From positions 15,067 through 79,066 of the IMG/VR virus record IMGVR_UViG_3300036773_000046: a stretch of 64,000 nt of DNA, one strand, 5' to 3'. Under the pieces are notes generated by a model. That model worked only from the letters and a program-made list of their open reading frames with translations, searched no databases and was not told the origin of the DNA. Shown in pieces: positions 33,763-54,700 of this stretch; position 1 is the stretch's first letter; every line of letters begins with the position of its first letter. The translations under genes were made by a program, and so were the position numbers. Source of the DNA: a virus (lineage: Duplodnaviria; Caudoviricetes).

Positions 33763-33763
33763 C

Positions 33764-34699
33764 GTGTTGATAATTTTGGAAGGACCTGATGGGAGCGGCA
33801 AAAGTACCCTCGCTAAGCTGATATTCGATCACCTAAACGAGACGCTGCCGGGTGATCACGTCGAGCTACTGCACAAGGGTCCGCCGCACGTGCACCCACT
33901 TAAGGAGTACGAGGCGCCGATCTTCTGGATGCGCGACTACCGACCGGGAACCAGCGAGCACCTCATCTGCGACCGATGGCACCTGGGCGAGGTGATCTAC
34001 CCGGCGGTGTTGGATCGCCCATCCGCGATGACGCCCGAGGTGTTGTGGCACATCGAGATGTTTCTGCGGTCGCGAGGCGCGCTGATCGTTCACGTGGATG
34101 AGCACACCGACACGCTGATGGAGCGGGTACGCACGCGAGGCGACGATCTTATCAATCCCGATCAGCTGCAGGACATCCGTCGGCGGTACTACGACGTGCT
34201 GGCTGATTCGATGTTACGTACCACGATGAGTCGACGACCCGAAGAGATCGTGAAGATCGCCCAAGAGCTAGACGCGATCTCGTCTCACCTGAATAACTTC
34301 GGCACGTACGTCGGACCACGGTACCCCGACGTCTTGCTGTTTGGCGAGGTACGCAACGTCCCTCAGCTGGTGCTGGATCGGCCAACGCCCGCCTTCATGC
34401 CCTACCCCGCGACGTCGGGTGCGTACCTGCTACGTTCGCTGCTCAACTGCCCAGAGAAGCGCGACAAGATCGGCGTTGCGAACGCATGCGACCGTGACGA
34501 CCCGTTCGACTTGTGGTGGGAGTTGGGTCAGCCCTTCGTCGTGTCGCTAGGCGCGAAGGCGACGTTGACGCTGCGACGCAAGGAGATCTTCGTCTCACGG
34601 GTGGTGAATCACCCACAGTACGTGAGACGCTTCAAGTCAAGATTCGGCGCGCAGTACGCACGACAGATTCTCTACGGCGAGGAGCCGACGTGGAGTTAG
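33764..34699 (+). CDS. dNMP (thymidylate-like) kinase fused to a uracil-DNA-glycosylase-fold domain
   Basis: LEGPDGSGKST, ICDRWHLGE, RVRTRGD; C-terminal LLFGE, SGAYLL, VVSLGAKA, NHPQY. Confidence 0.7.
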   Translation: MLIILEGPDGSGKSTLAKLIFDHLNETLPGDHVELLHKGPPHVHPLKEYEAPIFWMRDYRPGTSEHLICDRWHLGEVIYPAVLDRPSAMTPEVLWHIEMFLRSRGALIVHVDEHTDTLMERVRTRGDDLINPDQLQDIRRRYYDVLADSMLRTTMSRRPEEIVKIAQELDAISSHLNNFGTYVGPRYPDVLLFGEVRNVPQLVLDRPTPAFMPYPATSGAYLLRSLLNCPEKRDKIGVANACDRDDPFDLWWELGQPFVVSLGAKATLTLRRKEIFVSRVVNHPQYVRRFKSRFGAQYARQILYGEEPTWS

Positions 34700-35523
34700 T
34701 GATCAAGGACCTTCGCGAGGACTACGTCAAGATCTGTCGTGACGTGGTGACGTACGGCGAGATGGTCTACGGACGTGGCACGGCGACGAAGGAGTGGACG
34801 GGCGTCACGCTACTGTGTCCCGACCCGACCGTCCCGCTGCTGCCCGTCGGCGTCGGACGTCGCGTCAACCTGAAGCTCGCGGCGCTTGAGGCGCTGGGCA
34901 TGATCGCCGGTGAGTGGCCGTGGGACTTGATCACGCGGGTGGCGCCTCTTTACTCGTCTGTGCTGGTGTCGGGTGACGACCCAGGCGCCGCACAGTACGC
35001 CGCGTATGGACCGCGCATTTCGCGGCAACTACCCGTCGTGCTCGACATGCTGCGGGAAGACAACGCGACGCGGCAGGCGGTCTTGCAGATCTGGAAGCCG
35101 GAAGATCTCACGCACCAGGGCGACCGTCCTTGCACGATCTCTCTGCAGTTCTTACGTCGCAACGCAAAGCTAGAGTGTCACACGTACATGCGATCTCAGG
35201 ACGTGTGGCTTGGACTGGCGATGGACGTGTTCGTGTTCACGCAGCTACAGCTGACGATGGCGGCGGCGTTGGGCGTCTCACCCGGCAAGTACGTGCATCA
35301 CGTCGGTAGCCTACACGCGTATCAACGCGACTTCGAACGCATCCACGAGATGGCTGAACACCCGATCTCAGCGGCGGTCGACGAGTTGCCGCAGGGCTTA
35401 CGCGTCGTGAAGAACCCGCAGATCATGGCGAGCCTGATCTTAGCAGGCTCGGCGCAGTCGTCGGACAACGAGTGGTACCTACGCCAGATGGCACTGATCA
35501 GGAAGATCAAGACGAATGCTTGA
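34690..35523 (+). CDS. Thymidylate-synthase-family enzyme, probable dCMP hydroxymethylase
   Basis: YGPR, TRQAVLQIW, catalytic PCT, RSQDVWLGLAMD with Asp where E. coli ThyA has Asn177, SLHAY. Confidence 0.75.
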   Translation: MELVIKDLREDYVKICRDVVTYGEMVYGRGTATKEWTGVTLLCPDPTVPLLPVGVGRRVNLKLAALEALGMIAGEWPWDLITRVAPLYSSVLVSGDDPGAAQYAAYGPRISRQLPVVLDMLREDNATRQAVLQIWKPEDLTHQGDRPCTISLQFLRRNAKLECHTYMRSQDVWLGLAMDVFVFTQLQLTMAAALGVSPGKYVHHVGSLHAYQRDFERIHEMAEHPISAAVDELPQGLRVVKNPQIMASLILAGSAQSSDNEWYLRQMALIRKIKTNA

Positions 35524-35947
35524 AACGAGAACACGGCCCAGCGAGGACGAGGTGCTACTGCACGTCGCCTACGCCATCGCCGCGCGCGGTACCTGCCCGA
35601 ACCTACAGGTCGGCGCGGTGATCGCCCGCGACGGTAGGATCTTGAGCACCGGGTACAACGGCGTGCCGTCTGGCTTCGAGCATTGCACGCACCCGAGGCG
35701 GCAGCCGGGCGACCCGATCGTGAAGTGTGGCGCCATCCACGGCGAGGCTAACTCCATCGCGTGGGCGGCGCGCAACGGAGTGTCAACCGTTGGTGCGACG
35801 ATGATCTGCACCGACACGCCGTGCTGGACGTGCGCTCAGATGATCGTGCAGGCGGGAATCGTGCGCTTTGTTGCGGATAGAGAGTACCGGCGAACCGAGG
35901 GTGTGGACCTACTGCGGCAGGCGAACGTGCAGGTGGCAATGCTGTGA
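35516..35947 (+). CDS. dCMP deaminase
   Basis: QVGAVI, STGYNG, HGEANSI, TPCWTCAQMIVQAGI. Confidence 0.9.
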   Translation: MLETRTRPSEDEVLLHVAYAIAARGTCPNLQVGAVIARDGRILSTGYNGVPSGFEHCTHPRRQPGDPIVKCGAIHGEANSIAWAARNGVSTVGATMICTDTPCWTCAQMIVQAGIVRFVADREYRRTEGVDLLRQANVQVAML

Positions 35948-35962
35948 CGTTGGTGTTGATTA

Positions 35963-37858
35963 GTGGGTGACATCATACCCCTGCGTCCCAATGAGAACAC
36001 GATCGTTGGGCAGGGGTATCGACCCTTAGGTGAGGCGCGTGCGCACCTCGTCGAAACCACCGACGACGCGTTCGAGTTGCTACGGTGGCTCAGCACGAAG
36101 ACGGAGATCGCCCTCGACACGGAGACCACCGGCATCGACCGTCAGAAAGATCGTCCACGCATGGTCCAGATCGGCGACGAGATGGACGGCTGGGCGATCC
36201 CGTTCGAGCGCGCCGCGTTCATCGTCGATGACGTCGTACGCCGCTTTGAGGGCGAGTACGTGATGCACAACGCGACGTTCGACGCGCACATGCTCGAGTT
36301 TCGCGGCGCCGTCAAGCCCATACCCACCAACAAGATTCACGACACGCGCATCATGGCGCACGTGCTGTCGTCCACCGGACCACTCGGCCTCAAGCCTCTC
36401 TCCCAGCGCTTTGTGGACGCGGGTGCCACCGCCGCGCAGGAGGCGCTGAACGACGGCATTGGCAAGCACGGCGGGTGGACGTGGGCAAACGTGCCAGTTG
36501 ACTACGAACCCTACTGGGTGTATGCCGCGTTAGACACCGTGTTGACCAAGCGATTGAAAAATCACTTGTGGCCGCAGGTGCAGACCATCGCGCCCAACTC
36601 GTACTCTCTCGAGATGCTCGTCATGTGGGTGTGCGCGAAGATGGAACGTAAGGGCGCGAAGATTGACCGCCAGTACACCCAGGAGTTCAGCGACAAGCTC
36701 GAGGTGTACGCGGGCCAGGTTGAGGACTGGGTGCGACAACACTACGGCGCCAGCGCGGGATCCGACGAGGCAATCGTTGCGATCTTAGAACGTGAGGGCG
36801 TGCCGCTGTGGAAGCGCACGCCGTCGGGCAAGCGGTACTCGCTCGACAAGGAAGTGATCGGCGAGATCGAGCACCCATTGGCGAAGGCGGTGCAGGGTCG
36901 CCGGCAAGCCGTGAAGATCATGTCCACCTACCTACGGCACTACCTACTTGAGACCGACGCGAACGACCGTGTGCACCCGTCGATCAACACCGTCGGCGGC
37001 ACCAGCAAGAGTCCCTTCGAGTCGGGCGGCGCGCGTGGCGTGCGCACGGGTCGTATGTCGATGGACTCGCCCAACCTGCAGAACGTACCCATCCGCACCA
37101 AGGAGGGTAAGAAGATCCGCAACTGCTTCATCGTGGACGACGAGGAGACGTGGATCAAGTGCGACTTCGATCAGATTGAGATGCGTCTGTTCGCGCACAT
37201 CGCGGATGACAAGGCGCTCATCGACGCGTTCGTGCAGGCGCACATGGGCGGTGTCGACATGTTCACCCGCGCCTGCCGCGACATCTTTCAAGATCAAGCA
37301 ATCTTAAAGAGCGACGACCGACGGCAGTACGTGAAGAACGGGTTCTACGCGATCTTATACGGCGCGGGTCTCGAGCAGTTCGCGAAGACGGCGGGCATCA
37401 GGCATCCCGACGGCGCTCCCGATCTTGGCTCGGCGAACGCGTTCCTCGTGCAGCTACACCGACGATATCCCGGCATCAAGCAGCTGCAGGCGATCACCGA
37501 GCAGGATGCCATGCAGCGACTGGCAAGTGAGGGTGAGGCGTACGTGGAGTCTCCGTTGACGCGTCGTCGATTCGTCGCCGACCGTGGTCGCGAGTACGCG
37601 CTCATGAACTACATGGTGCAGGGCGCCGCGGGTGAGATCTTGAAGATGAAGATTGTGCAGGCGGACATGGCCGGGCTGGGCGACTACATGCTCTTTCCGG
37701 TTCACGACGAGATCGACTTTGCGATCCCGACGAACGACCTACCCGATGCGACGCAGACGATCAAAGAAGTAATGAACGACGACGAGTTGCTCTCCGTGCC
37801 CGTGACCTCGACGATGTCGCTGGGTGATCGCTGGGGCGACGTGAAGGATGAAGAATGA
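35963..37858 (+). CDS. polA: DNA polymerase family A with 3'-5' exonuclease
   Basis: LDTETTG, HNATFD, HDTRIM, TGRMS..SPNLQN, DFDQIEMR, RQYVKNGFYAILYGAG, NYMVQG.A, VHDE. Confidence 0.95.
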   Translation: MGDIIPLRPNENTIVGQGYRPLGEARAHLVETTDDAFELLRWLSTKTEIALDTETTGIDRQKDRPRMVQIGDEMDGWAIPFERAAFIVDDVVRRFEGEYVMHNATFDAHMLEFRGAVKPIPTNKIHDTRIMAHVLSSTGPLGLKPLSQRFVDAGATAAQEALNDGIGKHGGWTWANVPVDYEPYWVYAALDTVLTKRLKNHLWPQVQTIAPNSYSLEMLVMWVCAKMERKGAKIDRQYTQEFSDKLEVYAGQVEDWVRQHYGASAGSDEAIVAILEREGVPLWKRTPSGKRYSLDKEVIGEIEHPLAKAVQGRRQAVKIMSTYLRHYLLETDANDRVHPSINTVGGTSKSPFESGGARGVRTGRMSMDSPNLQNVPIRTKEGKKIRNCFIVDDEETWIKCDFDQIEMRLFAHIADDKALIDAFVQAHMGGVDMFTRACRDIFQDQAILKSDDRRQYVKNGFYAILYGAGLEQFAKTAGIRHPDGAPDLGSANAFLVQLHRRYPGIKQLQAITEQDAMQRLASEGEAYVESPLTRRRFVADRGREYALMNYMVQGAAGEILKMKIVQADMAGLGDYMLFPVHDEIDFAIPTNDLPDATQTIKEVMNDDELLSVPVTSTMSLGDRWGDVKDEE

Positions 37859-38625
37859 CTGATCTTGAAGTGCAGCTGGTCGCAACCACGCAGTTCCACT
37901 TGCCGGTAGGCGTGCCGTGGAAGCCTGACATCGCGTCGGCAAGCTATCAATACAGCGACGATCCTGCCTACCTGATCGAGTTCGCAGGACGTGCGTGTTA
38001 TCAGTCGTGGAACCGCCCCAACGTGAATACCGCAACCGTCGCCGGGTACATCGCTCATCTCATTGAGGTGGGCCACCTGTCAGTGCTGGAGCACGCGTCG
38101 GCATCGTTCTACATTCGTGGGATCACGCGTTCATTGTCACACGAGCTGGTGCGCCACCGACACTTTAGTTACTCACAGCTGTCGCAGCGGTACGTGGACA
38201 GCGGCGGCACCGAGTTCATCATGCCACCCGAGGCGGTCGGTGACGCGTTCCTCGAGGCGATCATCGCCGATCACCACGAGAAGTCGTTGGCGACGTACGA
38301 TGACATCGTGAATCACCTCATGGAGAAGCTGAAAGACGAACCTGGAACGTCGGTGGAACGGCGTAAGCGTGCACGGCAGACGGCACGTGCAGTGTTGGGC
38401 AATGACGTCGAAACGCAGATCGTCATGACTGGCAACTACCGCGCGTGGCGACACTTCATCCGCATGAGAGCAACGGCGGGTGCAGACACCGAGATCCGAA
38501 AGCTAGCCGTCAAGATCTTACTGCGCCTACAAGAGTTTGATCCCGCGGTGTTCGGCGACTTCACGTTAGACACGCATACTGACGGCACGCTGATCGCTTC
38601 AACCGAGGTGGGGCAAGAACAATGA
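37855..38625 (+). CDS. thyX: Flavin-dependent thymidylate synthase
   Basis: EFAGRACY, HLSVLEH, ELVRHRHFSYSQLSQRY, TGNYRAWRHF, EIR. Confidence 0.95.
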   Translation: MTDLEVQLVATTQFHLPVGVPWKPDIASASYQYSDDPAYLIEFAGRACYQSWNRPNVNTATVAGYIAHLIEVGHLSVLEHASASFYIRGITRSLSHELVRHRHFSYSQLSQRYVDSGGTEFIMPPEAVGDAFLEAIIADHHEKSLATYDDIVNHLMEKLKDEPGTSVERRKRARQTARAVLGNDVETQIVMTGNYRAWRHFIRMRATAGADTEIRKLAVKILLRLQEFDPAVFGDFTLDTHTDGTLIASTEVGQEQ

Positions 38626-38790
38626 GGAAGTTTCGCAAGGAGTACATGCTTAAGTTACCCGCGCACGAGCTACGAAAGCTTCACGCCCAGATGCAGTACG
38701 ATCTCGAGTACCTCGAGCAAGAGCGCCGTAGGGCGCGTGAGAACCTCGAGCTGGTGCGTGACGCGTTGCGCGTGAAGGGAGTGATCATCG

Positions 38791-39051
38791 GTGGTTGACG
38801 CCGAGAAACGTAGCACCACCGGTAACGAGATCGACGCAGGCGGCGTGGATCATCCTGCGCACTACAACCAGCATCCATCTGGCGTCGAGTGCGTCGACAT
38901 CGTGCGGCACCATGATTTCGATATCGGTAACGCGATCAAGTACCTGTGGCGGCAAGGACTGAAGGACGGCGAGCCCAGCGTGCGCGATCTTCGTAAGGCG
39001 ATCTGGTACATTGAGGATGAGATCAAGATGATCGAGAGTAAAGATGCCTAG
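38791..39051 (+). CDS. DUF3310 family protein
   Basis: VDHPAHY...GNAIKYLWR.G.K...DLRKAIWYI. Confidence 0.85.
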   Translation: MVDAEKRSTTGNEIDAGGVDHPAHYNQHPSGVECVDIVRHHDFDIGNAIKYLWRQGLKDGEPSVRDLRKAIWYIEDEIKMIESKDA

Positions 39052-39359
39052 GACGACGGTCGGCAAGATCGGCTTTCTCTGGGTTGCCGCGGTGATCAAC
39101 GACTTCGATCAGCTGCGTGACATACGCATCGGCTTTACTGCCGAACACGCGTTACGCCGTACACTGAAGGTGCATGGACGATGACGCCACTTGAGCAGGC
39201 TGAGACACTCGAGGCGCGCGCAGCGTTTCTCGGCGACGTACGCATCCCGATTGAGCAGCGATTGAACGTCGTCGAGATTGAACGCACCGTGCTCGCGTTA
39301 CGTGGCGCAGCGGACACTCTTCGTTTAGTTCATCGGCACGATCTTGAGAGGTTGCAGCA

Positions 39360-39830
39360 GTGACACGCATCGTTGTGGGCGTTGACCCAGGTGACAGCAC
39401 CGGAGTGGCGATCTTCAAAGACGGCGAGTTCGTGTCGGCGCATCAGGGACCGCCGGGCGACATGATCACCCTCGTCGAGTTTATCGTGAAGAAGGTCGCG
39501 GGCAACGACAGCTGTTGCGTCGCCGTTGAACGGTTCGTGCAGGGCGGTCGCGTCGCGCACTCGCACCAGCCAGTCGCGCAGCAGGTGGTCGGCGCCGTCG
39601 TTTCGCTTTGCGAAAAGTACGGCATACCTACGACGATGCAGGGACCGGCGGACGCACGTGCGGTCGCGTCGAACGACACGCTGCGTGCGATGGGTTTGTG
39701 GCAGACGAAGAATGACGTGGATCGGCAGGATGCGAACGACGCGAACTCGGCGGTGCGTCACGCGTTGCTGTACATGGCCGGACACTACGCCACGGACTTC
39801 ATCAAGCTACGGCAGCGTGCGGGAACTTGA
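39360..39830 (+). CDS. RuvC-like Holliday junction resolvase
   Basis: VGVDPGDSTGVA, VAVERF, DANSAVRHAL. Confidence 0.7.
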   Translation: MTRIVVGVDPGDSTGVAIFKDGEFVSAHQGPPGDMITLVEFIVKKVAGNDSCCVAVERFVQGGRVAHSHQPVAQQVVGAVVSLCEKYGIPTTMQGPADARAVASNDTLRAMGLWQTKNDVDRQDANDANSAVRHALLYMAGHYATDFIKLRQRAGT

Positions 39831-39857
39831 TACGTTGATCGTCCAACGAAGGGAATC

Positions 39858-43306: not shown

Positions 43307-43597
43307 GTGGAGTTTGAAAGAGCAAGTACCACCGCAGTAGGCGCGTATAAGCAAAAGTGTGAAGCGTGTAGCGGTGAGTTGTATCAGCAGCCCATCGCGC
43401 GTGCAGTTATTAGCGAAACACACAAGCCTTGGATCCACGCATCTCTTAAGTGTGCATCAATCATGGGTGAACGCTACAGCTCACAACTGTGGAGTGACGC
43501 AACACGTAAGAGTGAGTGTGAAGAGGCTGCGCGAAAGGGTGCATCCATGCGTTACGTTGGTGGAGGCCGCGGTAAAGACTGGGTACACACGCTATGA
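43307..43597 (+). CDS. Hypothetical protein (lower GC)
   Basis: 96 aa with Cys pairs; overlaps the next start. Confidence 0.4.
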   Translation: MEFERASTTAVGAYKQKCEACSGELYQQPIARAVISETHKPWIHASLKCASIMGERYSSQLWSDATRKSECEEAARKGASMRYVGGGRGKDWVHTL

Positions 43598-45392: not shown

Positions 45393-46373
45393 ATGCCAGT
45401 GTACAACTTCGCCGACCTGCTGAAGGAAGCCAAGCAGGGAAGCGCGTGGCCACCCGGCGACTACGACTTCGAGATCGCGCAGGCGGACTCGGTGCTCGCG
45501 GGAACCGGATCGCCCATGATCAAGTCCAAGCTGCGGTGCATCGTCGGGCCGTATGCCAACAAGACCGTCGATAACAACTTCGTGCTGAAGGTCGACAGCT
45601 CGGGTGCGATGGCTCGGTTCTTCATGCACATGGCGATCCTGGGCGTCACCGAGCAGTTCCTCACCGAGCAGCTCAAGCAGCTCAACACGGACGATCCGAA
45701 CTGCCTTGCGCCGATCGCCGCGCAGATTCGCGGCAAGCGTTGCCGTCTCAACCTGCAAGAGCGCACGTACAACGGCATGAAGCAGAACGACATCAAGGAG
45801 TTCAAGGCAATCGACGGTGGCCTCACGGGTGGACCAGTCGGCTTCACCGGCGGGATGCCCGGGCCGGGACCCGGTCCGACGCTGCCCGCTGCGCCGCAGC
45901 AGTTCGCGCAGGGTGGCGTCGTTCCACCCGACGCGTCAGTGCCGCCCGCGTTCGTTCCGCCCGCGCCCGTGGCCAACGGGCAGGCGCAGCAGTTCGTACC
46001 GCCGCCGACGCCCGACGCGTCACAGCCACAGTACGCGCCGCCCGTAGCTCCTCCGGCACCGGCTGCACCACCCACCGCACAGCCGCAGTACGCGCCGCCG
46101 CAGGCCACACAGCCGTCGCCACAACCCGCCCCGGCGCCGCCGCCACCACCCACGCCACCGCCGCCGCCCGCACCTCCAGTGCAAGAGCAGGCGCAGCAGC
46201 CTGATCTGGCGAACGTCCCGGCACCTCCCGGCTACGAGGCAATGTGGAATCAGATTCCAGCGGACGCGCGCGCCTCGATCTTGCAGAGCGTCGCGGCGCA
46301 GCAGGTCGCGCAACCGCAGCAGGCACCACAGCAGCAGGCCGCCGTGCCACCTCCCCCACCAATGCCCGTGTAA
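45393..46373 (+). CDS. ssDNA-binding protein (DUF669-like) with long Pro/Gln/Ala tail
   Basis: WPPGDYDFEIAQAD...MIKSKLRCIVGPYANKTV OB-like domain next to the Sak4-like gene. Confidence 0.65.
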   Translation: MPVYNFADLLKEAKQGSAWPPGDYDFEIAQADSVLAGTGSPMIKSKLRCIVGPYANKTVDNNFVLKVDSSGAMARFFMHMAILGVTEQFLTEQLKQLNTDDPNCLAPIAAQIRGKRCRLNLQERTYNGMKQNDIKEFKAIDGGLTGGPVGFTGGMPGPGPGPTLPAAPQQFAQGGVVPPDASVPPAFVPPAPVANGQAQQFVPPPTPDASQPQYAPPVAPPAPAAPPTAQPQYAPPQATQPSPQPAPAPPPPPTPPPPPAPPVQEQAQQPDLANVPAPPGYEAMWNQIPADARASILQSVAAQQVAQPQQAPQQQAAVPPPPPMPV

Positions 46374-46458
46374 TGAACACGGCGGAGGTAATCACGCTGA
46401 TCATCTGCGCCACAATCGCGGTGATCGCCTGGGCGGAAGCTTGGGTGAAACGTAAGAA

Positions 46459-47832
46459 GTGATAATCTCATATGGGAAGGTCGGGCGTGCAGTCGCATTG
46501 ACAGAGGCAGGCTGGTCGACCGTTGGCGGTGACATGGAACCTCCTCGCCTACTCCACGACCTAGCGTCGCGCAACCCGCAGCACACGTTCGCCATCATCT
46601 CTACGTGTCGTGATGACCCACAGGCATGTGGCTTCCCGCCCAACGTGGTGAACACGTGGACACCCGAACGTCTCGCGTGGTATTCGTCGCAGGTAAAGCC
46701 GTTTCAAGAGATCATGCGGCAGGTGTCCAAGACGGACATGGCGATGCTCGACGCGATCAGGGGGATCGAGGGTGTTATCGACACCATGCTGCTGCCTCTC
46801 GCAGAGAAGATGGAGGGTGCCGTCATCTGGTCGGGCCAACATGGGACGGCGAACAGCGTTCTCCCGTCGGTCACCGACCGCTCGGGTATACCTGGATTCA
46901 CACGGCCATATGACTCCTTCACTTTTTACGGTGGTGGGATCTTCAGGCTCATCAACGCGTGGCGTGACCTAGATCCGAAGCGTAATGAGGAGGTGTGGCT
47001 GATCGCCGACGCACGTAACCACCTCAAGGCACGCGACCAGAAGTGGCCGTTGCGTCATCCCGTACTCGGGCAGTTCAACTTCACACGCGATCTTCATCAC
47101 GAACGCTTCGGCGACAAGTCGAACCCGGCGGAGTTCTTCGGGTATGGCGACCGCGAGGAGACCGCGTCGTGGAAGACCGATCACACGTGGAAGTCACGCA
47201 TCAGCTACGTGTACTCGGGTCTCGAGGCGTGCGGCGTCATGCCCGAGCACGTCGGCCACTGGTACACGGACGACAACTTCAATCAACGTGCGCACTTCGG
47301 TCTCTTCATCAACGAGGCGGGTGGACACGTCGGCCAGGGCGCGGATCAGAAGGCCAACGAACACAAGCTCGGTCGTGCGACGATCACTCGCGACTGGGTG
47401 CTGCCGATTCAACCGGCGTTCATCCACGGCAAATGGACTAAGGCGTCAATGGAGGCGCTTAGCATCGACGTCACCTCGGTGCCGTTCGATCAGTACTTCC
47501 CAACGCTACGAACCGTCAAGTGCACGTTCACGACGCCATCTTCCTACAGCGGCTGGGCAACCACGAAGGCGTGGGAGGCGTTCGCCGTTGGCACGGTGTG
47601 CTTTCGACACCCAGAGTACGACACCCAAGATCACATCTACGGACGACTACCCGACGAGGTGCGTGGGTGGCTCTCACCCAAGACTCCTGAAGATCTCAAG
47701 GCACGCGTCGAGTTCCTCAACGGCAGCGAGGTAACGTGGAAGTGGCTGGTGCAGGCGCAGTATGATCTCTACCTAGACGTGGTGCTCAATCGCCCATGGC
47801 TGCAGAAGATCGAGGAAAGGCTGTTTGGATGA
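46459..47832 (+). CDS. T4 beta-glucosyltransferase-like DNA glycosyltransferase (GT-B)
   Basis: C-terminal GWATTKAWEAFAVGTVCFRHPEYDTQDHI...EDLKARVEFL...LVQAQ parallels the T4 BGT C-terminus as recalled from memory. Confidence 0.6.
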   Translation: MIISYGKVGRAVALTEAGWSTVGGDMEPPRLLHDLASRNPQHTFAIISTCRDDPQACGFPPNVVNTWTPERLAWYSSQVKPFQEIMRQVSKTDMAMLDAIRGIEGVIDTMLLPLAEKMEGAVIWSGQHGTANSVLPSVTDRSGIPGFTRPYDSFTFYGGGIFRLINAWRDLDPKRNEEVWLIADARNHLKARDQKWPLRHPVLGQFNFTRDLHHERFGDKSNPAEFFGYGDREETASWKTDHTWKSRISYVYSGLEACGVMPEHVGHWYTDDNFNQRAHFGLFINEAGGHVGQGADQKANEHKLGRATITRDWVLPIQPAFIHGKWTKASMEALSIDVTSVPFDQYFPTLRTVKCTFTTPSSYSGWATTKAWEAFAVGTVCFRHPEYDTQDHIYGRLPDEVRGWLSPKTPEDLKARVEFLNGSEVTWKWLVQAQYDLYLDVVLNRPWLQKIEERLFG

Positions 47833-47941
47833 GTTGGCACACTTGGAAACGACTTGGAGCGTTCAATCCCGGCCCTTACACACTTGATCTTTGGTGGTGC
47901 GAGCGATGTGGAAAGATCAAGGGTAAGGGTTGGCGTCTATC

Positions 47942-48157
47942 ATGAGAATGTTTCAGCTGGTACGTAAGGAAGATGTGACCGGCGTGTCGGGCACAGGCGT
48001 CGTCGCCGAGGGGGTTGAGTTCTCGTCGGGCGTCGTCGTGCTGACGTGGCTCTCTGACTGGCCTACCAGCGTCGTGTTTCACGACCGTGGTATCGACTCG
48101 GTGAAGGCGGTTCATGGGCACAACGGCTCGACGGTCATTCACTGGATAAGTCCGTGA
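47942..48157 (+). CDS. Conserved small actinophage hypothetical protein
   Basis: FQLVRKEDVTGVSGTGVVAEGVEFSSG.VVLTW. Confidence 0.65.
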   Translation: MRMFQLVRKEDVTGVSGTGVVAEGVEFSSGVVVLTWLSDWPTSVVFHDRGIDSVKAVHGHNGSTVIHWISP

Positions 48158-48978
48158 AGTGGACCTTCGCCAGCGTACCCACGCGTGAGGTGGCACGCTG
48201 GTGGGATCAGCAGCCGTGTAACGTCAAGCACAGCGACGCGTCGCCGGGATCCGTCAAGTTTACGCGTGACGTGCGCGATAAGGTCCGGCGCGCCGAGCCA
48301 CATCGCGTCGAGTTCATGCAGCTCGAACGCTGGAAGGGCAAGTGCGTCGTCGAGATCGGGTGCGGCATCGGCACCGAGGCGTTGGACTTTGCACGTGCGG
48401 GCGCACGCGTGTTCGCCTGCGACTTGTCCATTGAGTCGTTGCGAATTGCAACCACCCGCGCGTACTCTGAGCACTTGCAGGGGCAAGTGAAGTGGATCCA
48501 CTGGAACGCCGAGCAGGAGCTGCATCACGAGCTGCGACGACGCAAGGCTGACCTGATCTACTCTTTCGGCGTGCTGCATCATACGCCCAACCCAGACACC
48601 GCGTTGCGTCACCTGCGTCAGATGGCTGGTCCCAAGACGGAACTTCGCATCATGCTTTACAATCGCTGGTCCACGAAGGGTCTACGCTTAGGACTCACCG
48701 ACCGTAAGATCGCCAAAGGGTCGGAGGCGCGGGCCGACTCGCCGGTCACCTACGCATTCACGAAGAGACGCGCACGCACGCTGCTACGTAAGACTGGGTG
48801 GCAGGTGAAAAGCATTCACGTCGATCACATCTTCATGTACGACGTAGACGCGTACCGTCGTGGTGAGTTCGTGCTCGCGTTTCCCTGGCGGCACCTACCC
48901 GCGTGGGTGCGAGATCAGATCAAGCGTTTGGTAGGATGGCATCTACTGATCGTCGCCGAGCCGAGGAACAGATCATGA
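48154..48978 (+). CDS. Class I SAM-dependent methyltransferase
   Basis: VVEIGCGIG, ACDLS, DLIYSFGVLHH. Confidence 0.85.
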   Translation: MKWTFASVPTREVARWWDQQPCNVKHSDASPGSVKFTRDVRDKVRRAEPHRVEFMQLERWKGKCVVEIGCGIGTEALDFARAGARVFACDLSIESLRIATTRAYSEHLQGQVKWIHWNAEQELHHELRRRKADLIYSFGVLHHTPNPDTALRHLRQMAGPKTELRIMLYNRWSTKGLRLGLTDRKIAKGSEARADSPVTYAFTKRRARTLLRKTGWQVKSIHVDHIFMYDVDAYRRGEFVLAFPWRHLPAWVRDQIKRLVGWHLLIVAEPRNRS

Positions 48979-49964
48979 GCGTCGCAATCGTCAGCACAAG
49001 CATTCATGCGCATCCCGCCGCGTACGAGCTGTGGGCGAAGCAAGGGCACCTGGTCGTCGCGGGCGATCAGAACGCGCCGTCGTCGCTGCAGTACTTCATT
49101 AAAGATCTTGGCGGCACATACCTCACGCCGGAGCATCAGACGTCGTGGTCGTTCAGCGATAGCATCGGGTGGAAGTGCATTCAGCGTCGCAACGCGGCGG
49201 TGATGCACGCGTACCGCGAGGGCTTCGACTACGTGGCGACGGTAGACGACGACAATCAACCCGTGGACGACGACTTCATCGAACGGCACGTGGCGCACCT
49301 CAACGGCTCACTGCCCAACGACGTGCGGCTGTTGATCGGCGACAAGGACTGGACCGACATCGGGTGCATGTGCGTACCAGAGATCAGACAACGCGGCACG
49401 CCGTGGGGAATGATCCAAGCAAACTACACCGTGTCGACTGGTCACTTACCGAAGGTAGTCGCGTCGCAGGCGCAGGTGCTCGGCGATCCCGACTGCTGCG
49501 CGGTGACGCGTATCACTAAGAACCCGCAGGTGTCGGGCGTCGTACACAACGTCGTCGTCGGCGCCGATCAGTACGCGGCGTTCAACTCGCAGGCAACCGT
49601 GTGGGCTGGCAGGTGGGCGCCGTTGATCGCGTGCCTGCCGCACGTAGGTCGCTACGACGACATCTTCGCGTCATTCATCGCGAAGCGGATCATGATGGCA
49701 CACGGCGTAAGCTTCTTCGCGGGCGCGCCCTTTGTGTGGCAGCTGCGCAACGCGCACAACTTCGACAAAGATCTCAGTGAAGAGATCTTCGGCATGGACA
49801 ACACCGTGCCGCTCGTGGCGCGTATGAACAAGCTTCAACTGCCAGAGAGCCTGCCGAAGTCTTACGCGCAGATTGCCAACGCGCTTGAGGAGATCTTACC
49901 CGAGCGCACTCATCAGTTCATGCTCAAGTGGGCGCAAGAGTGGCTTAAGTTGGAGGCTAAGTGA
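48975..49964 (+). CDS. RGP/UDP-arabinopyranose-mutase or STELLO-like GT-A protein
   Basis: VVAGDQNAP, RRNAAVMHAY, ATVDDDN, GRYDDIFASFIAKRI. Confidence 0.6.
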   Translation: MSVAIVSTSIHAHPAAYELWAKQGHLVVAGDQNAPSSLQYFIKDLGGTYLTPEHQTSWSFSDSIGWKCIQRRNAAVMHAYREGFDYVATVDDDNQPVDDDFIERHVAHLNGSLPNDVRLLIGDKDWTDIGCMCVPEIRQRGTPWGMIQANYTVSTGHLPKVVASQAQVLGDPDCCAVTRITKNPQVSGVVHNVVVGADQYAAFNSQATVWAGRWAPLIACLPHVGRYDDIFASFIAKRIMMAHGVSFFAGAPFVWQLRNAHNFDKDLSEEIFGMDNTVPLVARMNKLQLPESLPKSYAQIANALEEILPERTHQFMLKWAQEWLKLEAK

Positions 49965-51145
49965 CGACGGTTGGAGTGCTGGGACTCGGTAAGCTCGGGT
50001 TACCACTTGCGCTGACGTTCGCGGAGGCAGGACACAAGACGCTGGTGTGGGATGTGGATGAACTGCCGCGTGACGCCGTGCGACGTAGGCAGAGTCACAT
50101 CGACGAACCCGACGTGCAGGGTATGCTGGAGTCGTTGCGTCTGCAACTCGCGCCGCCGGGACTTATGTCGGAGATCGCCGAGGTGGTGTTCGTGATCGTG
50201 CCGACGCCCTCGCTGCCTAGCGGCGCGTTCTCCGACGAGCACGTTGAGACGGCGATCGACATGATGGCGTACAACCGGTCGTCGTTGGACGGGCCCATCA
50301 TCGCGTGCGTAAGTACCCTATCACCCGGCTCGTCGTTGTGGCTGTCGAAGATGTCACGTGACCGCGGCATGCCCTTCGTGTACACGCCTACCATGATCGC
50401 ACTTGGCAGCGTTGTTCACGATCTTCGCGAGGCAGAGATGCAGATCATCGGCCAGGGCGCGTTGCCCGAAGAGCAGCGTGCGGCGCGCGTCGTGGGACGC
50501 GTCATGAAGAGCGTCGCGCGTTCGACGCCGCAGGCTTACATGCGTTACAGCTCGGCAGAGATCACGAAGATCGCAAGCAACGCGTTCTCCACCATGAAGA
50601 TTACGTTTGCGAACATGCTTGGGCACATGGCCGACGCACATGGCGCGAACGTCAACGAGATCAGCTACGGGTTGGCGCTGCGCGGACACGTCGGCTCGAA
50701 GTTGATCACCGCGGGTGCGGGCTTTGGCGGCCCGTGCTTCCCGCGTGACACGCACGCGTTCGACGCGGCGGGTGGCATGATGGGTAAGACGGTCCATGAG
50801 CTCAACGACAGGCACGCGTACATGATTGCGAGCCGAGTGGTCAACGCCCACCAAGAGCCGCCGACGACCTTCAGCATTCTTGGGCGCGAGTACAAGGAAG
50901 GTTCGAACTACCGCATCGAGCCGTTCAGCGACAAGGTGTCGGCGGTGCTTGAAGACGGCTACGAGCTGAAGCCGGTGGACAGCCGGGAGGCAGACGTCGT
51001 GGTCATCGCGATGCCACTGCGCAACGTGAACCTGTGCGATAAGATACGCGAGGGGGCGACGGTGATCGACCTCTGGCGCACGCATCCCTACCTAGGAATG
51101 TGTCCCGTACGCTACATCCCGTTTGGAATTGGAGAGACCAGTTGA
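49961..51145 (+). CDS. UDP-glucose/GDP-mannose 6-dehydrogenase family
   Basis: GLGKLGLPLA, IVPTP, STLSPG, AEITKIASNAF...KITFAN, GFGGPCFPRD. Confidence 0.9.
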   Translation: MTTVGVLGLGKLGLPLALTFAEAGHKTLVWDVDELPRDAVRRRQSHIDEPDVQGMLESLRLQLAPPGLMSEIAEVVFVIVPTPSLPSGAFSDEHVETAIDMMAYNRSSLDGPIIACVSTLSPGSSLWLSKMSRDRGMPFVYTPTMIALGSVVHDLREAEMQIIGQGALPEEQRAARVVGRVMKSVARSTPQAYMRYSSAEITKIASNAFSTMKITFANMLGHMADAHGANVNEISYGLALRGHVGSKLITAGAGFGGPCFPRDTHAFDAAGGMMGKTVHELNDRHAYMIASRVVNAHQEPPTTFSILGREYKEGSNYRIEPFSDKVSAVLEDGYELKPVDSREADVVVIAMPLRNVNLCDKIREGATVIDLWRTHPYLGMCPVRYIPFGIGETS

Positions 51146-52122
51146 CTAGGAAGGCGCTCGTTACCGGAGCCGGTGGCTTCATTGGTGGTCACCTCGTGCA
51201 GAGTTTACTTCACGAGGGCATGGACGTCATGGCAGTTGATCGTAAGCCGCGTGAAAGGTGGTATCAGACGCCACACGACGTGCGTAGCTTCACCGACACG
51301 AGCGTGCGTGAGCTCGTACCGGCAAACCTATCGGGCATCGACGAGGTGTATCACCTAGCCGCCGACATGGGCGGCATTGGCTACATCACGCACAACCTCG
51401 TGTCGTGCAGCCGCAACGTCGTCGACACGATCAACTTGCTGGACTGCGTGCATCCCGACACGCTGGTCTTCTTCTCCTCGTCGGCGTGCGTGTACCCCGT
51501 ACACATGCAGGAGAAGGGCGGGAACGTGTCGCTGGCAGAGCACATGGTGTGGCCCTACGATCCCGAACCCGGCTACGGATTCGAGAAGCTCTACGGCGAG
51601 CAGCTCATGAAGTGGTACCACGAAGAGCGCGACGTGCAAACACGCGTCGCGCGTTATCACAACGTGTACGGCCCGCACGGATCATGGAACGACGGTCGTG
51701 AGAAGGCACCCGCCGCCATCTGCCGCAAGGTCGCAATCGCAAAGCTCACGGGTGAACACACGATCGACATCTGGGGAGACGGCGAGCAGACGCGTAGCTT
51801 CATGTACGTCGATGACTGCGTCGAGGGCACGAAGCTGATTACCCGTGACACCCGACCTGACGCGTATGAGCCAGTCAACCTCGGCACCGAAGACTGGGTG
51901 ACGATCAACGAGCTGGTGTCCATCGTCGAGCAGATCGCGGGCGTGCACCTGCGACGACGTTACGATCTTACCGCGCCGCAAGGCGTGCGCGGGCGTAACA
52001 GCGACAACACCTTGATCGCCGAACGACTTGGGTGGGAGCCCAAGCTCACCCTCGAGTACGGGCTAGAGAAGACGTACCACTGGGTGTACGACCAGGTAAA
52101 GGCTGCGGCCGAAGGGTCGTGA
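51142..52122 (+). CDS. GDP-mannose 3,5-epimerase-like NAD-dependent epimerase
   Basis: TGAGGFIG, HLAADMGGIGYI, SSSACVYP, YGFEKL, GREKAPAAICRK, GVRGRNSDN. Confidence 0.85.
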   Translation: MTRKALVTGAGGFIGGHLVQSLLHEGMDVMAVDRKPRERWYQTPHDVRSFTDTSVRELVPANLSGIDEVYHLAADMGGIGYITHNLVSCSRNVVDTINLLDCVHPDTLVFFSSSACVYPVHMQEKGGNVSLAEHMVWPYDPEPGYGFEKLYGEQLMKWYHEERDVQTRVARYHNVYGPHGSWNDGREKAPAAICRKVAIAKLTGEHTIDIWGDGEQTRSFMYVDDCVEGTKLITRDTRPDAYEPVNLGTEDWVTINELVSIVEQIAGVHLRRRYDLTAPQGVRGRNSDNTLIAERLGWEPKLTLEYGLEKTYHWVYDQVKAAAEGS

Positions 52123-52997
52123 CCAACGAACTCAACACCACGCTGCTTGCACGCCTTGGCTGGTACGTCGCCGAGCGGCAAGCGACGTGGCATCGCCGGC
52201 AGCTTGGGATCACTCCGTGGTCGCCCGATCCCGTGATGTCATCAAACCACTTCACCAACGTCTACCGTGAACTTGATCCCGGCACGATCTATGCCCAAGA
52301 GCAACTCTCACAGCTTGATGAACTGCGTGACCGTATGTGGTTCGCGGTCGCGTATCGATTGGTCAACCGCCGCTCCACCTTCGAAGAGTACCCGGGTGGG
52401 TTCGGATGCTCATACACCGACGAGTGGCTGGCGTACCTTGAAGATCGTTACCAACGCGGGCTGACCGTCAAGACCAATCGACACCTCACCCCACGTCGTG
52501 AGTGGTACGAGAAGGCGTTGCGAACGATACCCACATTTCTACCTCGCGACGCGTCGGCGGCGTTCAAGACGTTGCACGGCGTCACGGGAGTGGGCGTGTT
52601 CACGGGTTGGCAGATACACTGCGATCTTGTGCAGTTCGGCGACATCGACTACGACCCATCATTCGTCGTCGTAGGTGACGGCGCGAGCTACTCGATCAGC
52701 TGCCTCTACGGGCAGCGACGGTTCGCCGACTACTGGCACGACGGGCGTGCGGGCACGAACATCGGACGTAAGCGTGCGGTAGGTGGCCGGGTGCGATCTT
52801 ACGCACACCCGTGGTTCAAGGAGGTGCTGCTGTGGCTAGTGGATCAGCAAGTTCATTGGCTGCCGTCGTACTGGCAGCCGTGGGATGGGCGTGCGCTCGA
52901 CCCCAAGAACGTCGAGCACTCACTCTGTGAGTGGCTGCGTTACGAACGTCATCTCATCAAGGATGCGGATGCGACACTTGATATACGATCAAGCTAA
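52119..52997 (+). CDS. aGPT-Pplase / 5-hmdU DNA kinase helical-domain family protein (HhH-glycosylase fold)
   Basis: ERQ.TW.RR..G..PWSPDPVM...HFTNVYRELD.GT, GVG.FTGWQI.CDL, EHSLCEW.RY. Confidence 0.6.
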   Translation: MTNELNTTLLARLGWYVAERQATWHRRQLGITPWSPDPVMSSNHFTNVYRELDPGTIYAQEQLSQLDELRDRMWFAVAYRLVNRRSTFEEYPGGFGCSYTDEWLAYLEDRYQRGLTVKTNRHLTPRREWYEKALRTIPTFLPRDASAAFKTLHGVTGVGVFTGWQIHCDLVQFGDIDYDPSFVVVGDGASYSISCLYGQRRFADYWHDGRAGTNIGRKRAVGGRVRSYAHPWFKEVLLWLVDQQVHWLPSYWQPWDGRALDPKNVEHSLCEWLRYERHLIKDADATLDIRSS

Positions 52998-53015
52998 GAC
53001 AGATTGGATTTTGAA

Positions 53016-53462
53016 ATGAGCGACTTCAACGACGTGGGCGACTTTCATCGTAAGATGGGACTACGCACGTCATCGGTTAGTCGAGTGGCGATGCTGCCTG
53101 ACCTCGACGACGCCGACGTGGACGACATGCTTCAGTTCCGCGTCGACTTCATGGACGAAGAGCTCACCGAGTTCAAGGATGGGTGGGCGGAGCAAGATCA
53201 CGCGAAGATGGCCGACGCGCTGATCGACCTCGTGTACGTCGCGATGGGAACGGCACACCTGCTCAACTACCCGTGGGCGGCGTTGTGGAACGAGGTGCAG
53301 TATGCGAACATGCAGAAGGAGCGCGCCGACGGCGCGGAAGACGCACGTTCAACGCGTAAGCACATGCTGGACGTCGTGAAGCCCGAGGGCTGGCAGCCGC
53401 CTGACGTCGAGGGTGTACTCAAGTACCATCGTAAGATCGACGACGATAGCTACGCGCACTGA
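53016..53462 (+). CDS. MazG-like all-alpha NTP pyrophosphatase (dUTPase/dCTPase-like)
   Basis: DFHRKMG, EELTEF, DALIDLVYVAMG, EVQYANMQK, VVKPEGWQPPD. Confidence 0.85.
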   Translation: MSDFNDVGDFHRKMGLRTSSVSRVAMLPDLDDADVDDMLQFRVDFMDEELTEFKDGWAEQDHAKMADALIDLVYVAMGTAHLLNYPWAALWNEVQYANMQKERADGAEDARSTRKHMLDVVKPEGWQPPDVEGVLKYHRKIDDDSYAH

Positions 53463-53464
53463 TC

Positions 53465-54700
53465 ATGTATCGAGCGTGTGATGTCATGGGCTTCGCGGGT
53501 GGCTTCACCCTGGGCATGGTGCAGGCAGGGTTTGAGCTCGCCGGCAAGAGAGAGCTACCCGGCGGCTTCGGCGCGTCCAACTGCCTAGCCAACCGCGATC
53601 TTCTTGGCGACGAGTGGGAACTCGAAGTGGGTCCCGGCGAGACGTGGACACCCGTGCAGGCTGACGCCGTGTTCGGCAACCCGCCGTGCTCGGGCTTCTC
53701 GGTGATGACGGCGCAGGCGCACCGCGGAATCGACGCAAAGATCAACGCGTGCATGTGGCACTTCAGCAACTACGTCGCACGGGTGAAGCCGCAGATCTCG
53801 ATCATGGAGAGTGTGCGCATGGCGTACACGACTGGTCGCCCACTGATGCAGCAGCTGCGCGCGAACGTCGAGCTGCAGACGGGTCTTAAGTACAACCTGA
53901 TTCACGTGTATCAGAACGCACTCGAGCTCGGTGGTGCGGCGCATCGTCCGCGCTACTTCAGCGTCATGGCGCGCGTACCCTTCGGCGTCGAGTACCCAAA
54001 CGTGCGCACACCTGTTCTTCGTGACGTCATTGAAGATCTCGAAGGACTCGACCTGACGTGGGAGCCACAGCCGTACAGACGTCCGCCGACGTGGTGGAGC
54101 AAGCCATCACGGTCGGACACGGGCATCGTAGACGGACACATGGTGTCTCGATCACCCGTCGTGACGCGCGCACTCGATCTTCTCGAGGCGAACGGCGGCT
54201 GGCCGCAGGGCAAGGCGGTGGGTAAGGTTCTCGAGGCGTACTACAAAGAGCACGGCACCCTGCCGAACAGCTGGCTCTACCAGAAAGATCGACTGGTCGC
54301 GCGTGACTTCTTCATGGGCTTCACCACGATGGTACGGTGGCGTGAAGATCGCCCAGCACGAGTGATCACGGGCGCGGCGTTGCAGTCGGTGCTTCACCCG
54401 TGGCTTGATCGAACGATCACACACCGTGAGACCGCACGTATCATGGGCTTCCCGGACGACTGGAAGATCAAGCCCATCGCCGGTAACGGCACGGCACCCA
54501 CGTGGGGCAAGGGCATCACGGTGCAGTGTGGTAAGTGGATCGGCGACTGGACCCGGCGGTCCATCGACGGCGAGCCGGGATCGAACCAAGGCATGCGCAT
54601 CGGAGACCGCGAGTACTTCATCGAGGCGACGCCACGCGTATGGAAGGCTTCCGTACCCGAACCCGACGTTGATCTAGACCCACTGGTGATCGGTGGCTAG
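53465..54700 (+). CDS. C5-cytosine DNA methyltransferase family
   Basis: GFAGGF (motif I), GNPPCSGFS (IV), MESV (VI, normally ENV), HRPRYF (VIII), RTITHRETARIMGFPDDW, GKGI (IX-X). Confidence 0.8.
   Translation: MYRACDVMGFAGGFTLGMVQAGFELAGKRELPGGFGASNCLANRDLLGDEWELEVGPGETWTPVQADAVFGNPPCSGFSVMTAQAHRGIDAKINACMWHFSNYVARVKPQISIMESVRMAYTTGRPLMQQLRANVELQTGLKYNLIHVYQNALELGGAAHRPRYFSVMARVPFGVEYPNVRTPVLRDVIEDLEGLDLTWEPQPYRRPPTWWSKPSRSDTGIVDGHMVSRSPVVTRALDLLEANGGWPQGKAVGKVLEAYYKEHGTLPNSWLYQKDRLVARDFFMGFTTMVRWREDRPARVITGAALQSVLHPWLDRTITHRETARIMGFPDDWKIKPIAGNGTAPTWGKGITVQCGKWIGDWTRRSIDGEPGSNQGMRIGDREYFIEATPRVWKASVPEPDVDLDPLVIGG

Follow-up and report, generated by a model that had tools for sequence, protein, structure and literature searches.

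Glycosylated hydroxymethylcytosine is the classic phage counter to restriction enzymes and CRISPR. The T4 set comprises the dCMP hydroxymethylase gp42, the deoxynucleoside monophosphate (dNMP) kinase gp1, the dCTPase gp56, the deaminase Cd and the α- and β-glucosyltransferases (AGT and BGT). To our knowledge, the known DNA chemistry is limited to glucose on 5-hydroxymethylcytosine (5hmC) and, since 2025–26, arabinose or hexoses on 5-hydroxycytosine. We analysed a stretch of 64,000 nucleotides (the window; GC content ~61%), which spans bases 15067–79066 of the 79,066-bp IMG/VR virus record IMGVR_UViG_3300036773_000046, a record rated 98% complete. The window encodes a T4-like set of genes for base replacement together with a block of sugar-nucleotide genes.

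Our data make it probable that this phage glycosylates 5hmC in its DNA in the manner of T4, with a donor-sugar pathway of its own. Our confidence in the exact sugar is lower than that in glycosylated 5hmC. The evidence consists of the active-site signature of a ThyA homologue (37 of 37 lineage members), a GT-B glycosyltransferase with T4 BGT as its nearest structural neighbour, the pairing of a 3,5-epimerase of GDP-mannose (GME) with a GT75-family mutase-like protein, and the position of these genes in the genome. It supports the original prediction, made from the sequence before any database search, that the phage makes its own non-glucose nucleoside diphosphate (NDP)-sugar and attaches it to 5hmC. 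A literature search on actinophage 5hmC and on GDP-mannose epimerase in phage hypermodification found no report of such a system.

Organization of the putative modification genes

All module genes are located on the + strand. Every gene named in the original prediction was found at or near the position proposed for it, and the identities hold within family resolution:

33749–34699, +: kinase fused to a uracil-DNA glycosylase (UDG)-fold domain (Pfam and PDB sequence matches, AlphaFold2 model, VIA-align)
34690–35523, +: ThyA-fold pyrimidine hydroxymethylase, predicted to convert dCMP to 5-hydroxymethyl-dCMP (5hm-dCMP) (MilA relatives, active-site signature)
35516–35947, +: dCMP deaminase (PF00383, E 6e-21; phrog_174)
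37855–38625, +: ThyX flavin-dependent thymidylate synthase (PF02511, E 7.5e-52)
46459–47832, +: GT-B fold glycosyltransferase of 457 aa, predicted DNA (5hmC) glycosyltransferase (AlphaFold2 fold, T4 BGT nearest)
47942–48157, +: small conserved phage protein of 71 aa (phrog_7499, E 1.5e-25)
48154–48978, +: class I S-adenosylmethionine (SAM)-dependent methyltransferase, small-molecule/sugar type (Methyltransf_11/12/25, E ~1e-14; phrog_22502, E 1e-39)
48975–49964, +: GT75-family NDP-pyranose/furanose mutase-like protein of the MtdL/RGP type (MtdL 7xpr/7yua, E 1e-15)
49961–51145, +: NDP-sugar 6-dehydrogenase, UDP-glucose/GDP-mannose dehydrogenase family (PF00984, PF03721; TIGR03026, E 7e-47)
51142–52122, +: GME (GDP-mannose 3,5-epimerase; PDB 2c59, E 2.4e-79)
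52119–52997, +: HMUDK_hel protein, formerly aGPT-Pplase clade 1 (PF18723, E 1.3e-22)
53004–53462, +: MazG-like all-alpha nucleoside triphosphate (NTP) pyrophosphatase (PF01503, E 2e-11; phrog_671)
53465–54700, +: divergent C5 cytosine DNA methyltransferase-like protein, here C5 methylase (PF00145, E 1e-17)

The family matches in this list bear out the predicted dCMP deaminase and separate ThyX, the SAM methyltransferase, the NDP-sugar dehydrogenase, the MazG-like pyrophosphatase and the C5 methyltransferase. The contiguous block at 46459–54700 is likewise confirmed as a compact unit, in which the five genes from the methyltransferase to HMUDK_hel (48154–52997) are linked by 4-nt start/stop overlaps. 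The 71-aa gene is wedged between the GT-B and methyltransferase genes and overlaps the start of the latter by 4 nt. Upstream, the ThyA homologue starts within the stop region of the kinase, overlapping its stop codon, and is itself overlapped by the deaminase gene. The nucleotide/replication set of the window also includes PolA, and the modification genes are located within this replication/nucleotide-metabolism block, away from the structural module.

Predicted base synthesis

The solved structures nearest to the ThyA homologue were those of the CMP hydroxymethylase MilA (5b6d and 5jnh; E 3e-20). Lee et al. (NAR 2026; PMC13326640) have described how residue changes redirect the ThyA fold. Replacement of Asn177 by Asp turns the substrate to cytosine, and replacement of Leu143 by Asp or Glu accompanies a product other than methyl (water access). 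Replacement of Asp169 by Asn marks the flavin-dependent 5-hydroxy-dCMP synthases of RB69, DLP3 and RL38J1. The window protein reads Asp143 (L143D), Cys146, Asp169 (within the motif RSQDVW) and Asp177 (N177D), and the same D/C/D/D signature was present in 36 of 36 relatives extracted from related contigs. This bears out the dCMP-type Asp claimed for the homologue. A control M6-like dUMP hydroxymethylase read D/C/D/N, with Asn177 kept, and the D169N change of the 5-hydroxy-dCMP synthases was absent from the window protein. We conclude that the ThyA homologue carries the hydroxymethylase signature of T4 gp42 and MilA and that, because of this signature, its predicted product is 5hm-dCMP. N177D favours 5hmC over 5-hydroxymethyluracil (5hmU), and the retained Asp169 favours it over 5-hydroxycytosine.

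The predicted fusion of a dNMP kinase with a UDG was recovered in both of its parts. The P-loop domain (residues 1–181) had Pfam and PDB sequence matches to thymidylate kinase and YorR. In the AlphaFold2 model of the fusion (pLDDT 94.3), residues 6–181 aligned with YorR (2axp) at a VIA-align Z of 16.4. The C-terminal domain (approximately residues 178–314), aligned by VIA-align over residues 178–310, matched UdgX (6ail; Z 9.9, 116 aa, root-mean-square deviation 2.9) and the UDGs of T. maritima (1l9g; Z 9.6) and T. thermophilus (2d3y; Z 9.6). The UDG fold emerged only in this exhaustive search; Foldseek with the whole model returned kinases only, and the isolated C-terminal 156 residues gave no Pfam match at E up to 1. 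Canonical family-4 UDGs have the motifs GE(A/G)PG and HPS and Fe-S cysteines. The window domain has GEVRN and HPQ and is devoid of the four-Cys cluster; the consensus of its family is G-D-x-R ... HPQ. The fused architecture is common, with at least 1487 matching cluster representatives, most among those listed over the full length. YorR-like kinases also adjoin the ThyA homologue in RB69, DLP3 and RL38J1 (PMC13326640). The fused kinase is a candidate 5hm-dCMP kinase. Its UDG-fold domain may just remove uracil, for which there is a precedent in phages with modified thymine, where UDG domains occur as fusions to polymerases, or it may present the flipped base to the kinase.

T4 couples dCMP deaminase with 5hmC synthesis, and its Cd deaminase feeds the dUMP supply. 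By analogy, the window dCMP deaminase would likewise supply dUMP for dTMP synthesis. Its gene was found in 38 of the 42 relatives with enough upstream flank. ThyX was found in only two of these 42 and is therefore placed outside the conserved core. The MazG-like protein is, again by analogy with T4, a candidate dCTPase that would keep dCTP from phage DNA. Together, the deaminase, ThyX and the MazG-like pyrophosphatase would complete a T4-like nucleotide set, with the specificities that we infer for them.

The glycosyltransferase

For the GT-B gene we placed the start at 46459, where the N-terminal IISYGKVGR fits the family consensus; the database call of 432 aa is too short. The resulting 457-aa protein had no sequence match in Pfam, PHROG, NCBIfam or PDB; its homologues in metagenomes numbered at least 550. 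Among 50,697 GenBank phage records, neither megablast with the 8.2-kb block nor tblastn with the GT-B protein gave a match. An AlphaFold2 model built from a 35-sequence alignment had a pLDDT of 89.8 and a pTM of 0.88, and the top six Foldseek matches of this model were all T4 BGT. In VIA-align the top four rows were again T4 BGT (Z 20.2–20.6, root-mean-square deviation 3.6–4.0, 288–295 residues aligned). The next structural group consisted of BshA-type GT4 enzymes (Z 17.9), and T4 AGT scored Z 15.8. The protein is thus outside GT63 and Pfam T4 BGT by sequence and has a two-domain GT-B fold closest to BGT by structure. The earlier designation as a BGT-like transferase stands at the level of the fold and fails as membership of the sequence family. 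We regard the uncharacterised family of this protein as predicted DNA (5hmC) glycosyltransferases on the basis of the modelled fold.

Predicted synthesis of the sugar donor

The epimerase aligned with Arabidopsis GME (2c59) across 323 residues (E 2.4e-79). Catalytic Cys145 and Lys217 and the YxxxK of SDR (short-chain dehydrogenase/reductase) proteins were all conserved (SSAC, YGxxK, EKAPAA); the catalytic roles of Cys145 and Lys217 have been described (PMC2279256). Judged by these residues, the protein is a genuine GDP-mannose 3,5-epimerase, as had been proposed, and would convert GDP-D-mannose to GDP-L-galactose or L-gulose.

The GT75 protein matched MtdL (7xpr/7yua) at E 1e-15, and its orthologue in the related locus L004 (L numbers denote related loci) matched Pfam RGP at E 4e-12. 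MtdL turns GDP-L-galactopyranose into GDP-L-galactofuranose, and roles have been assigned to GT75 residues, including the nucleophilic Arg159 (PMC9937993). In a phmmer alignment to MtdL, the window protein keeps the DDD motif, Arg159, Asp195, Ser228, Gln229, Arg257 and Asp260. The RGP side of the earlier designation 'RGP/STELLO-like' therefore holds, in the form of a GT75 mutase; identity as a STELLO glycosyltransferase (Pfam E 0.0085) was dropped for the far stronger MtdL match. Because GME adjoins the GT75 mutase within the cassette, the pair predicts a GDP-L-hexofuranose donor, probably of the GDP-L-galactofuranose type. We infer the order of the steps and the exact sugar from the pairing.

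The dehydrogenase has the catalytic GFGGPC motif with its Cys. Comparisons with TIGR03026 and PDB entries gave no assignment of its nucleotide specificity (UDP-glucose versus GDP-mannose). Since its gene adjoins the epimerase gene also in the nearest relatives (L084–L087), we propose that it acts in the epimerase route and makes the uronic-acid form of the donor. The SAM methyltransferase, which has a homologue after GT-B in the closest relative (L009), is predicted from its family to act on the sugar, or on the uronic acid derived from it, as a methylase. The further methylation envisaged earlier would most likely have the sugar as its target, as the enzyme looks like a small-molecule/sugar type.

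Conservation of the module in related phages

A profile scan of IMG/VR yielded 72 loci; genes downstream of GT-B were counted in the 47 of them whose sequence continues for at least 5 kb beyond it. By tblastn, the order shared by the 72 loci was kinase-UDG, ThyA, deaminase, PolA ... GT-B, a variable stretch of 0.5–3.7 kb, NTP pyrophosphatase and C5 methylase. Both the NTP pyrophosphatase (MazG or dUTPase_2 type) and the C5 methylase were present in 47 of 47 loci. We also compared the window MazG-like protein with the dUTPase_2-type proteins of relatives as possible orthologues. They align poorly and are treated as functional analogues.

The sugar genes varied. GT75 was found in 32 of the 47 loci, 20 of which also have an SDR epimerase. 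Dehydrogenase, methyltransferase and HMUDK_hel genes were found in none of the 47 IMG/VR loci. In L084/85, from other collections, the order was GT-B, GT75, dehydrogenase, GME, dUTPase_2, HMUDK_hel and C5 methylase; only the nearest relatives share the dehydrogenase and HMUDK_hel genes with the window. Three loci (L006, L007 and L079) have a nucleotidyltransferase, an isomerase and a phosphatase in the sugar-gene slot. The cassette of the window is the longest seen (5.6 kb). The same module, with an annotated UDP-galactopyranose mutase, is located at 4382–19619 of Actinomycetia phage DSL-LC01 (L083; OQ999401.1), a metagenome-assembled freshwater phage. By analogy, this mutase again points to a furanose donor. 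The picture across the lineage is one of a fixed scaffold for base replacement and transfer with an exchangeable sugar cassette.

Two further observations concern these cassettes. A neprosin-like (PF03080) gene is located between the GT75-like gene and the dehydrogenase in L086 (11301–12398) and L087 (6880–7977); this family is odd inside a phage DNA-modification block. In DSL-LC01, a tryptophan halogenase and a second glycosyltransferase are encoded nearby on the opposite strand.

Proposed pathway

We propose the following pathway. Before replication, the ThyA-fold enzyme would convert dCMP to 5hm-dCMP, which the fused kinase would phosphorylate to the diphosphate and host enzymes to the triphosphate. 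The MazG-like pyrophosphatase would break down dCTP, and the deaminase and ThyX would maintain the dTTP supply. In parallel, GME would convert GDP-mannose from the host into GDP-L-galactose, a step supported at the family level with an inferred substrate. The GT75 mutase would then contract the ring to give GDP-L-galactofuranose, its presumed product. In the window phage and its nearest relatives, the dehydrogenase would oxidize C6 of the sugar to the uronic acid, and in the window phage the SAM methyltransferase would methylate the sugar. After replication, the BGT-like GT-B protein would move the sugar onto the hydroxymethyl group of 5hmC and thereby shield the DNA from host nucleases.

Module members without an assigned step

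Three parts of the module, namely HMUDK_hel, the C5 methylase and the UDG-fold domain, fit no proposed step. HMUDK_hel scored 81 bits against PF18723 (cut-off 25) and was 23% identical to an M6-like gene annotated as aGPT-Pplase clade 1, like gp55 of phage M6. The latter, its counterpart in M6, was dispensable in the reconstitution of the M6 modification. The label 'aGPT-Pplase-like' is therefore correct for the family (PF18723, clade 1) and does not extend to a validated amino-acid:DNA transferase, as this clade is without proven activity. Because a language-model atlas places HMUDK_hel with the ADDT and aGPT-Pplase3 clusters, it may be a group transferase. Its gene adjoins the C5 methylase gene in L006, L007 and L084/85. 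A pattern scan of IMG/VR with HMUDK_hel found no relative; the relatives came from the protein database. The two validated enzymes of thymidine hypermodification are the 5-hmdU DNA kinase 5-HMUDK (PF18748) and the amino-acid:DNA transferase ADDT (PF18724). A search across all 79 kb of the genome at E up to 1 found neither, whereas M6-like controls matched both. Of the earlier analogy with 5hmU phages, the presence of the HMUDK_hel clade remains; the absence of 5-HMUDK and ADDT makes it weak.

Canonical C5 methyltransferases have the motifs I (FxGxG), IV (PCQ), VI (ENV) and IX/X. The C5 methylase of the window (PF00145, 64.8 bits) has FAGG, PPCS, ESV, HRPR and TxRExARxxGFPD. It retains the catalytic Cys and Glu, with PCS in place of PCQ. 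No other gene of the module is as well conserved (44–65% identity in the 47 relatives).

A more elaborate chemistry can also be imagined. The kinase, with its base-flipping UDG fold, would phosphorylate 5hmC within DNA, and HMUDK_hel, which shares a superfamily with the amino-acid:DNA transferases, and/or the C5-methylase-like enzyme would substitute or derivatize the phosphorylated group, alongside a methylated L-hexofuranuronic sugar. We regard this as speculative and improbable. If true, this route would be the cytosine counterpart of thymidine hypermodification, and such a sugar has never been seen on DNA.

Alternative explanations

Glycosylated 5hmC was weighed against other explanations of the same genes. 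If the base were 5hmU, the deaminase would turn 5hm-dCMP into 5hm-dUMP, part of the thymine would be replaced, the GT-B protein would make a base-J-like glycosyl-5hmU, and HMUDK_hel would act as presumed in thymidine-hypermodifying phages. The overlap of the deaminase gene with the ThyA homologue and its retention in 38 of 42 relatives fit this scheme, but a deaminase is equally expected for 5hmC, as in T4, and ThyX would compete through dTMP synthesis. Elsewhere, HMUDK_hel occurs in 5hmU phages, M6 among them; however, none of the 47 IMG/VR relatives that retain the remaining module has it, and 5-HMUDK and ADDT are missing from the genome. AGT- and BGT-type folds alone cannot separate 5hmC from 5hmU acceptors (an AGT complex with hydroxymethyluracil-containing DNA is listed). 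Known dUMP hydroxymethylases, on the other hand, retain Asn177, and we consider 5hmU unlikely. We give as little credence to a non-DNA acceptor, with the sugar genes and the GT-B protein serving to glycosylate a protein of the virion, a polymer of the host envelope or a small molecule; ThyA, the kinase and MazG would then produce plain 5hmC or mere changes of the nucleotide pool. GT-B enzymes at Z 15–18 to our model use many acceptors, and pathways for polysaccharides and antibiotics are known to employ GME and GT75 enzymes. Nevertheless, T4 BGT scores above every other GT-B structure. The genes are also flanked by recombination/replication genes on one side and by the NTP pyrophosphatase and the DNA methylase on the other, outside the structural module, and this position is kept in every relative, even where the sugar genes are swapped.

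The remaining explanations appear very unlikely. The ThyA homologue could be a 5-hydroxy-dCMP synthase like those of RB69, DLP3 and RL38J1, with the sugar ether-linked directly to the C5-OH. MilA, its best solved relative, is also the top structural match of proven 5-hydroxy-dCMP synthases, and these three phages likewise pair a YorR-like kinase with a glycosyltransferase and a ThyA homologue. The change D169N, common to all tested synthases of this type, is absent, however, and Asp169 is present in 37 of 37 lineage members, which leaves this explanation a very small probability. The least probable is that the genome contains chiefly 5-methylcytosine, produced by the C5 methylase, that the ThyA homologue is a thymidylate synthase, either ordinary or inactive, and that the sugar genes are unrelated cargo. 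It would account for the strong conservation of the C5 methylase (44–65% identity, 47 of 47) and of its catalytic Cys and Glu. Yet dUMP methylation is incompatible with N177D and L143D, ThyX is encoded separately, and the tight operon ties the sugar genes to the NTP pyrophosphatase and the methylase.

Several points weigh against glycosylated 5hmC itself and against the donor pathway that we propose for it. The GT-B protein has no detectable sequence similarity to T4 BGT, and a fold in common with BGT is no proof of a DNA acceptor. Two MtdL positions differ in the GT75 protein: the Mn-binding His287 is replaced by Gln and the sugar-binding Asp87 by Ile. In AtRGP5, which is inactive, neither His287 nor Arg257 is conserved (PMC9937993), and the Gln at the His287 position is common to all four phage GT75 copies aligned. 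The dehydrogenase is nearer to UDP-glucose dehydrogenases (E 7e-27) than to GDP-mannose dehydrogenases (E 2.5e-12) in PDB, and its place in a GDP-sugar route is uncertain. The MazG-like protein is placed at the family level (MazG/PRA-PH fold), and its specificity for dCTP/dCDP is putative. If cytosine were replaced completely, the ever-present C5 methylase would have no obvious substrate, which makes it hard to square with such a pathway. All relatives belong to one phage lineage, and the conserved gene order is weak evidence for functional linkage. Finally, the phage is uncultivated, and its modified base is a prediction from its genes.

Source genome and host

The window sequence was found in soil metagenomes. 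Polymerases of Microbacterium, Arthrobacter and Gordonia phages share no more than 37% identity with its DNA polymerase, and WhiB and DUF397 genes are present in relatives of the window phage. These polymerase relatives and WhiB/DUF397 genes make it most likely that the source is an uncultivated soil phage with a host among the Actinomycetota. Public soil contigs aligned to the window reveal presence and sequence identity, never base modification. In a second soil sample from another study, identical contigs span 51004–52534 (the dehydrogenase-epimerase-HMUDK_hel junction) and further parts of the block. Because these contigs bridge the junctions, the gene order of the block is genuine and not an assembly artefact. 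A segment at ~44.4–45.1 kb of the window was uncovered in this sample; we draw no inference from it.

Other features of the window were noted in passing. At 45755–46421 the summed contig depth was 48–91x in all three soil runs, compared with ~10x or less elsewhere. This stretch, at the 3′ end of a gene for a protein resembling single-stranded DNA-binding protein, is GC-rich and of low complexity and was matched by many unrelated contigs; the loose contig ends there consist of GCC repeats. The AAA_24 recombinase-like gene at 43594–45375 encodes 593 aa, compared with 259–281 aa in relatives, and holds Hint/intein-splicing domains. It is probably interrupted by an intein; the gene of L084 has a similar length (580 aa). 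Just downstream of the modification block, 55862–56590 encodes a 242-aa protein of the phage 'peptidase' family phrog_16701 (E 3e-32), and the preceding gene (209 aa) was without a family match. No tRNA genes were found in the window.

Comparison with known systems

The system resembles that of T4 in its ThyA-fold enzyme, which has both the Asp for cytosine specificity and the Asp/Glu of hydroxymethylases, and in having a kinase, an all-alpha NTP pyrophosphatase, a dCMP deaminase and a GT-B transferase. It differs in its kinase, which resembles YorR instead of gp1 and carries a fused UDG-fold domain, and in that the GT-B protein lacks sequence similarity to BGT and is ~100 residues longer. The predicted donor is a phage-made GDP-L-hexofuranose, in contrast to the host UDP-glucose of T4. 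The window also adds a C5 methylase and HMUDK_hel, and the host is probably a high-GC actinobacterium.

RB69, DLP3 and RL38J1 (PMC13326640) share with the window a MilA-like ThyA homologue, a nearby YorR-like kinase and GT-B transferases, which in these phages are DNA glycosyltransferases. They also encode the synthesis of furanose NDP-sugars, namely UDP-arabinofuranose and, via a mutase, UDP-galactofuranose. Unlike these phages, the window lacks D169N, and it has GME and a metal-dependent GT75 protein acting, as predicted, on GDP-sugars in place of an arabinose-5-phosphate route or a UDP-galactopyranose mutase that depends on flavin adenine dinucleotide (FAD).

With the GDP-L-galactose (fucose) mutases MtdL and Hyg20 of the A201A and hygromycin A nucleoside-antibiotic pathways, the window GT75 protein has in common the GT75 fold with its DDD motif and its catalytic Arg and Asp residues, as well as a GME-type pairing for an L-hexofuranose from GDP-mannose. 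The differences are the phage context with a predicted DNA acceptor, the changes His287 to Gln and Asp87 to Ile, and the added dehydrogenase and methyltransferase. The thymidine hypermodification systems of M6, ViI and PaMx11 resemble the window in an HMUDK_hel protein like M6 gp55 and a ThyA-fold hydroxymethylase. The window has neither 5-HMUDK (PF18748) nor ADDT (PF18724), no tailoring enzymes of the pyridoxal phosphate (PLP) or radical-SAM type, and a hydroxymethylase of the cytosine type (Asp177). DSL-LC01 is similar in kinase-UDG, ThyA homologue (D/C/D/D), deaminase, PolA, helicase, nuclease, recombinase, glycosyltransferase, pyranose mutase, MazG and C5 methylase. Its 348-aa glycosyltransferase was missed by tblastn with the window GT-B protein, its mutase is a UDP-galactopyranose mutase, and it lacks GME, GT75, dehydrogenase and HMUDK_hel.

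Taken together, the locus and its more than 70 relatives point to a large lineage of soil phages, uncultivated throughout, that infect high-GC bacteria. This lineage appears to place an L-furanose on DNA by GDP-sugar chemistry, with GME and a metal-dependent GT75 mutase. Its sugar cassettes appear to be swappable, and that of the window, with predicted oxidation and methylation, is the most elaborate. If our reading is true, the lineage would provide a new DNA sugar and a new family of DNA glycosyltransferases with at least 550 members, and GT75 mutases and GME would gain a role in virus biology. It would also provide new DNA-labelling enzymes and new targets for type IV restriction. A puzzle raised by these findings is the C5 methylase that is invariably tied to a cytosine-replacement pathway. 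The system is set apart from those of T4 and the 5-hydroxycytosine phages by its transferase family, its predicted GDP-based L-furanose donor and its extra genes, and from the latter also by the hydroxymethylase signature. Particular to the window itself are the putative oxidizing and methylating extension of the sugar pathway and the HMUDK_hel gene.

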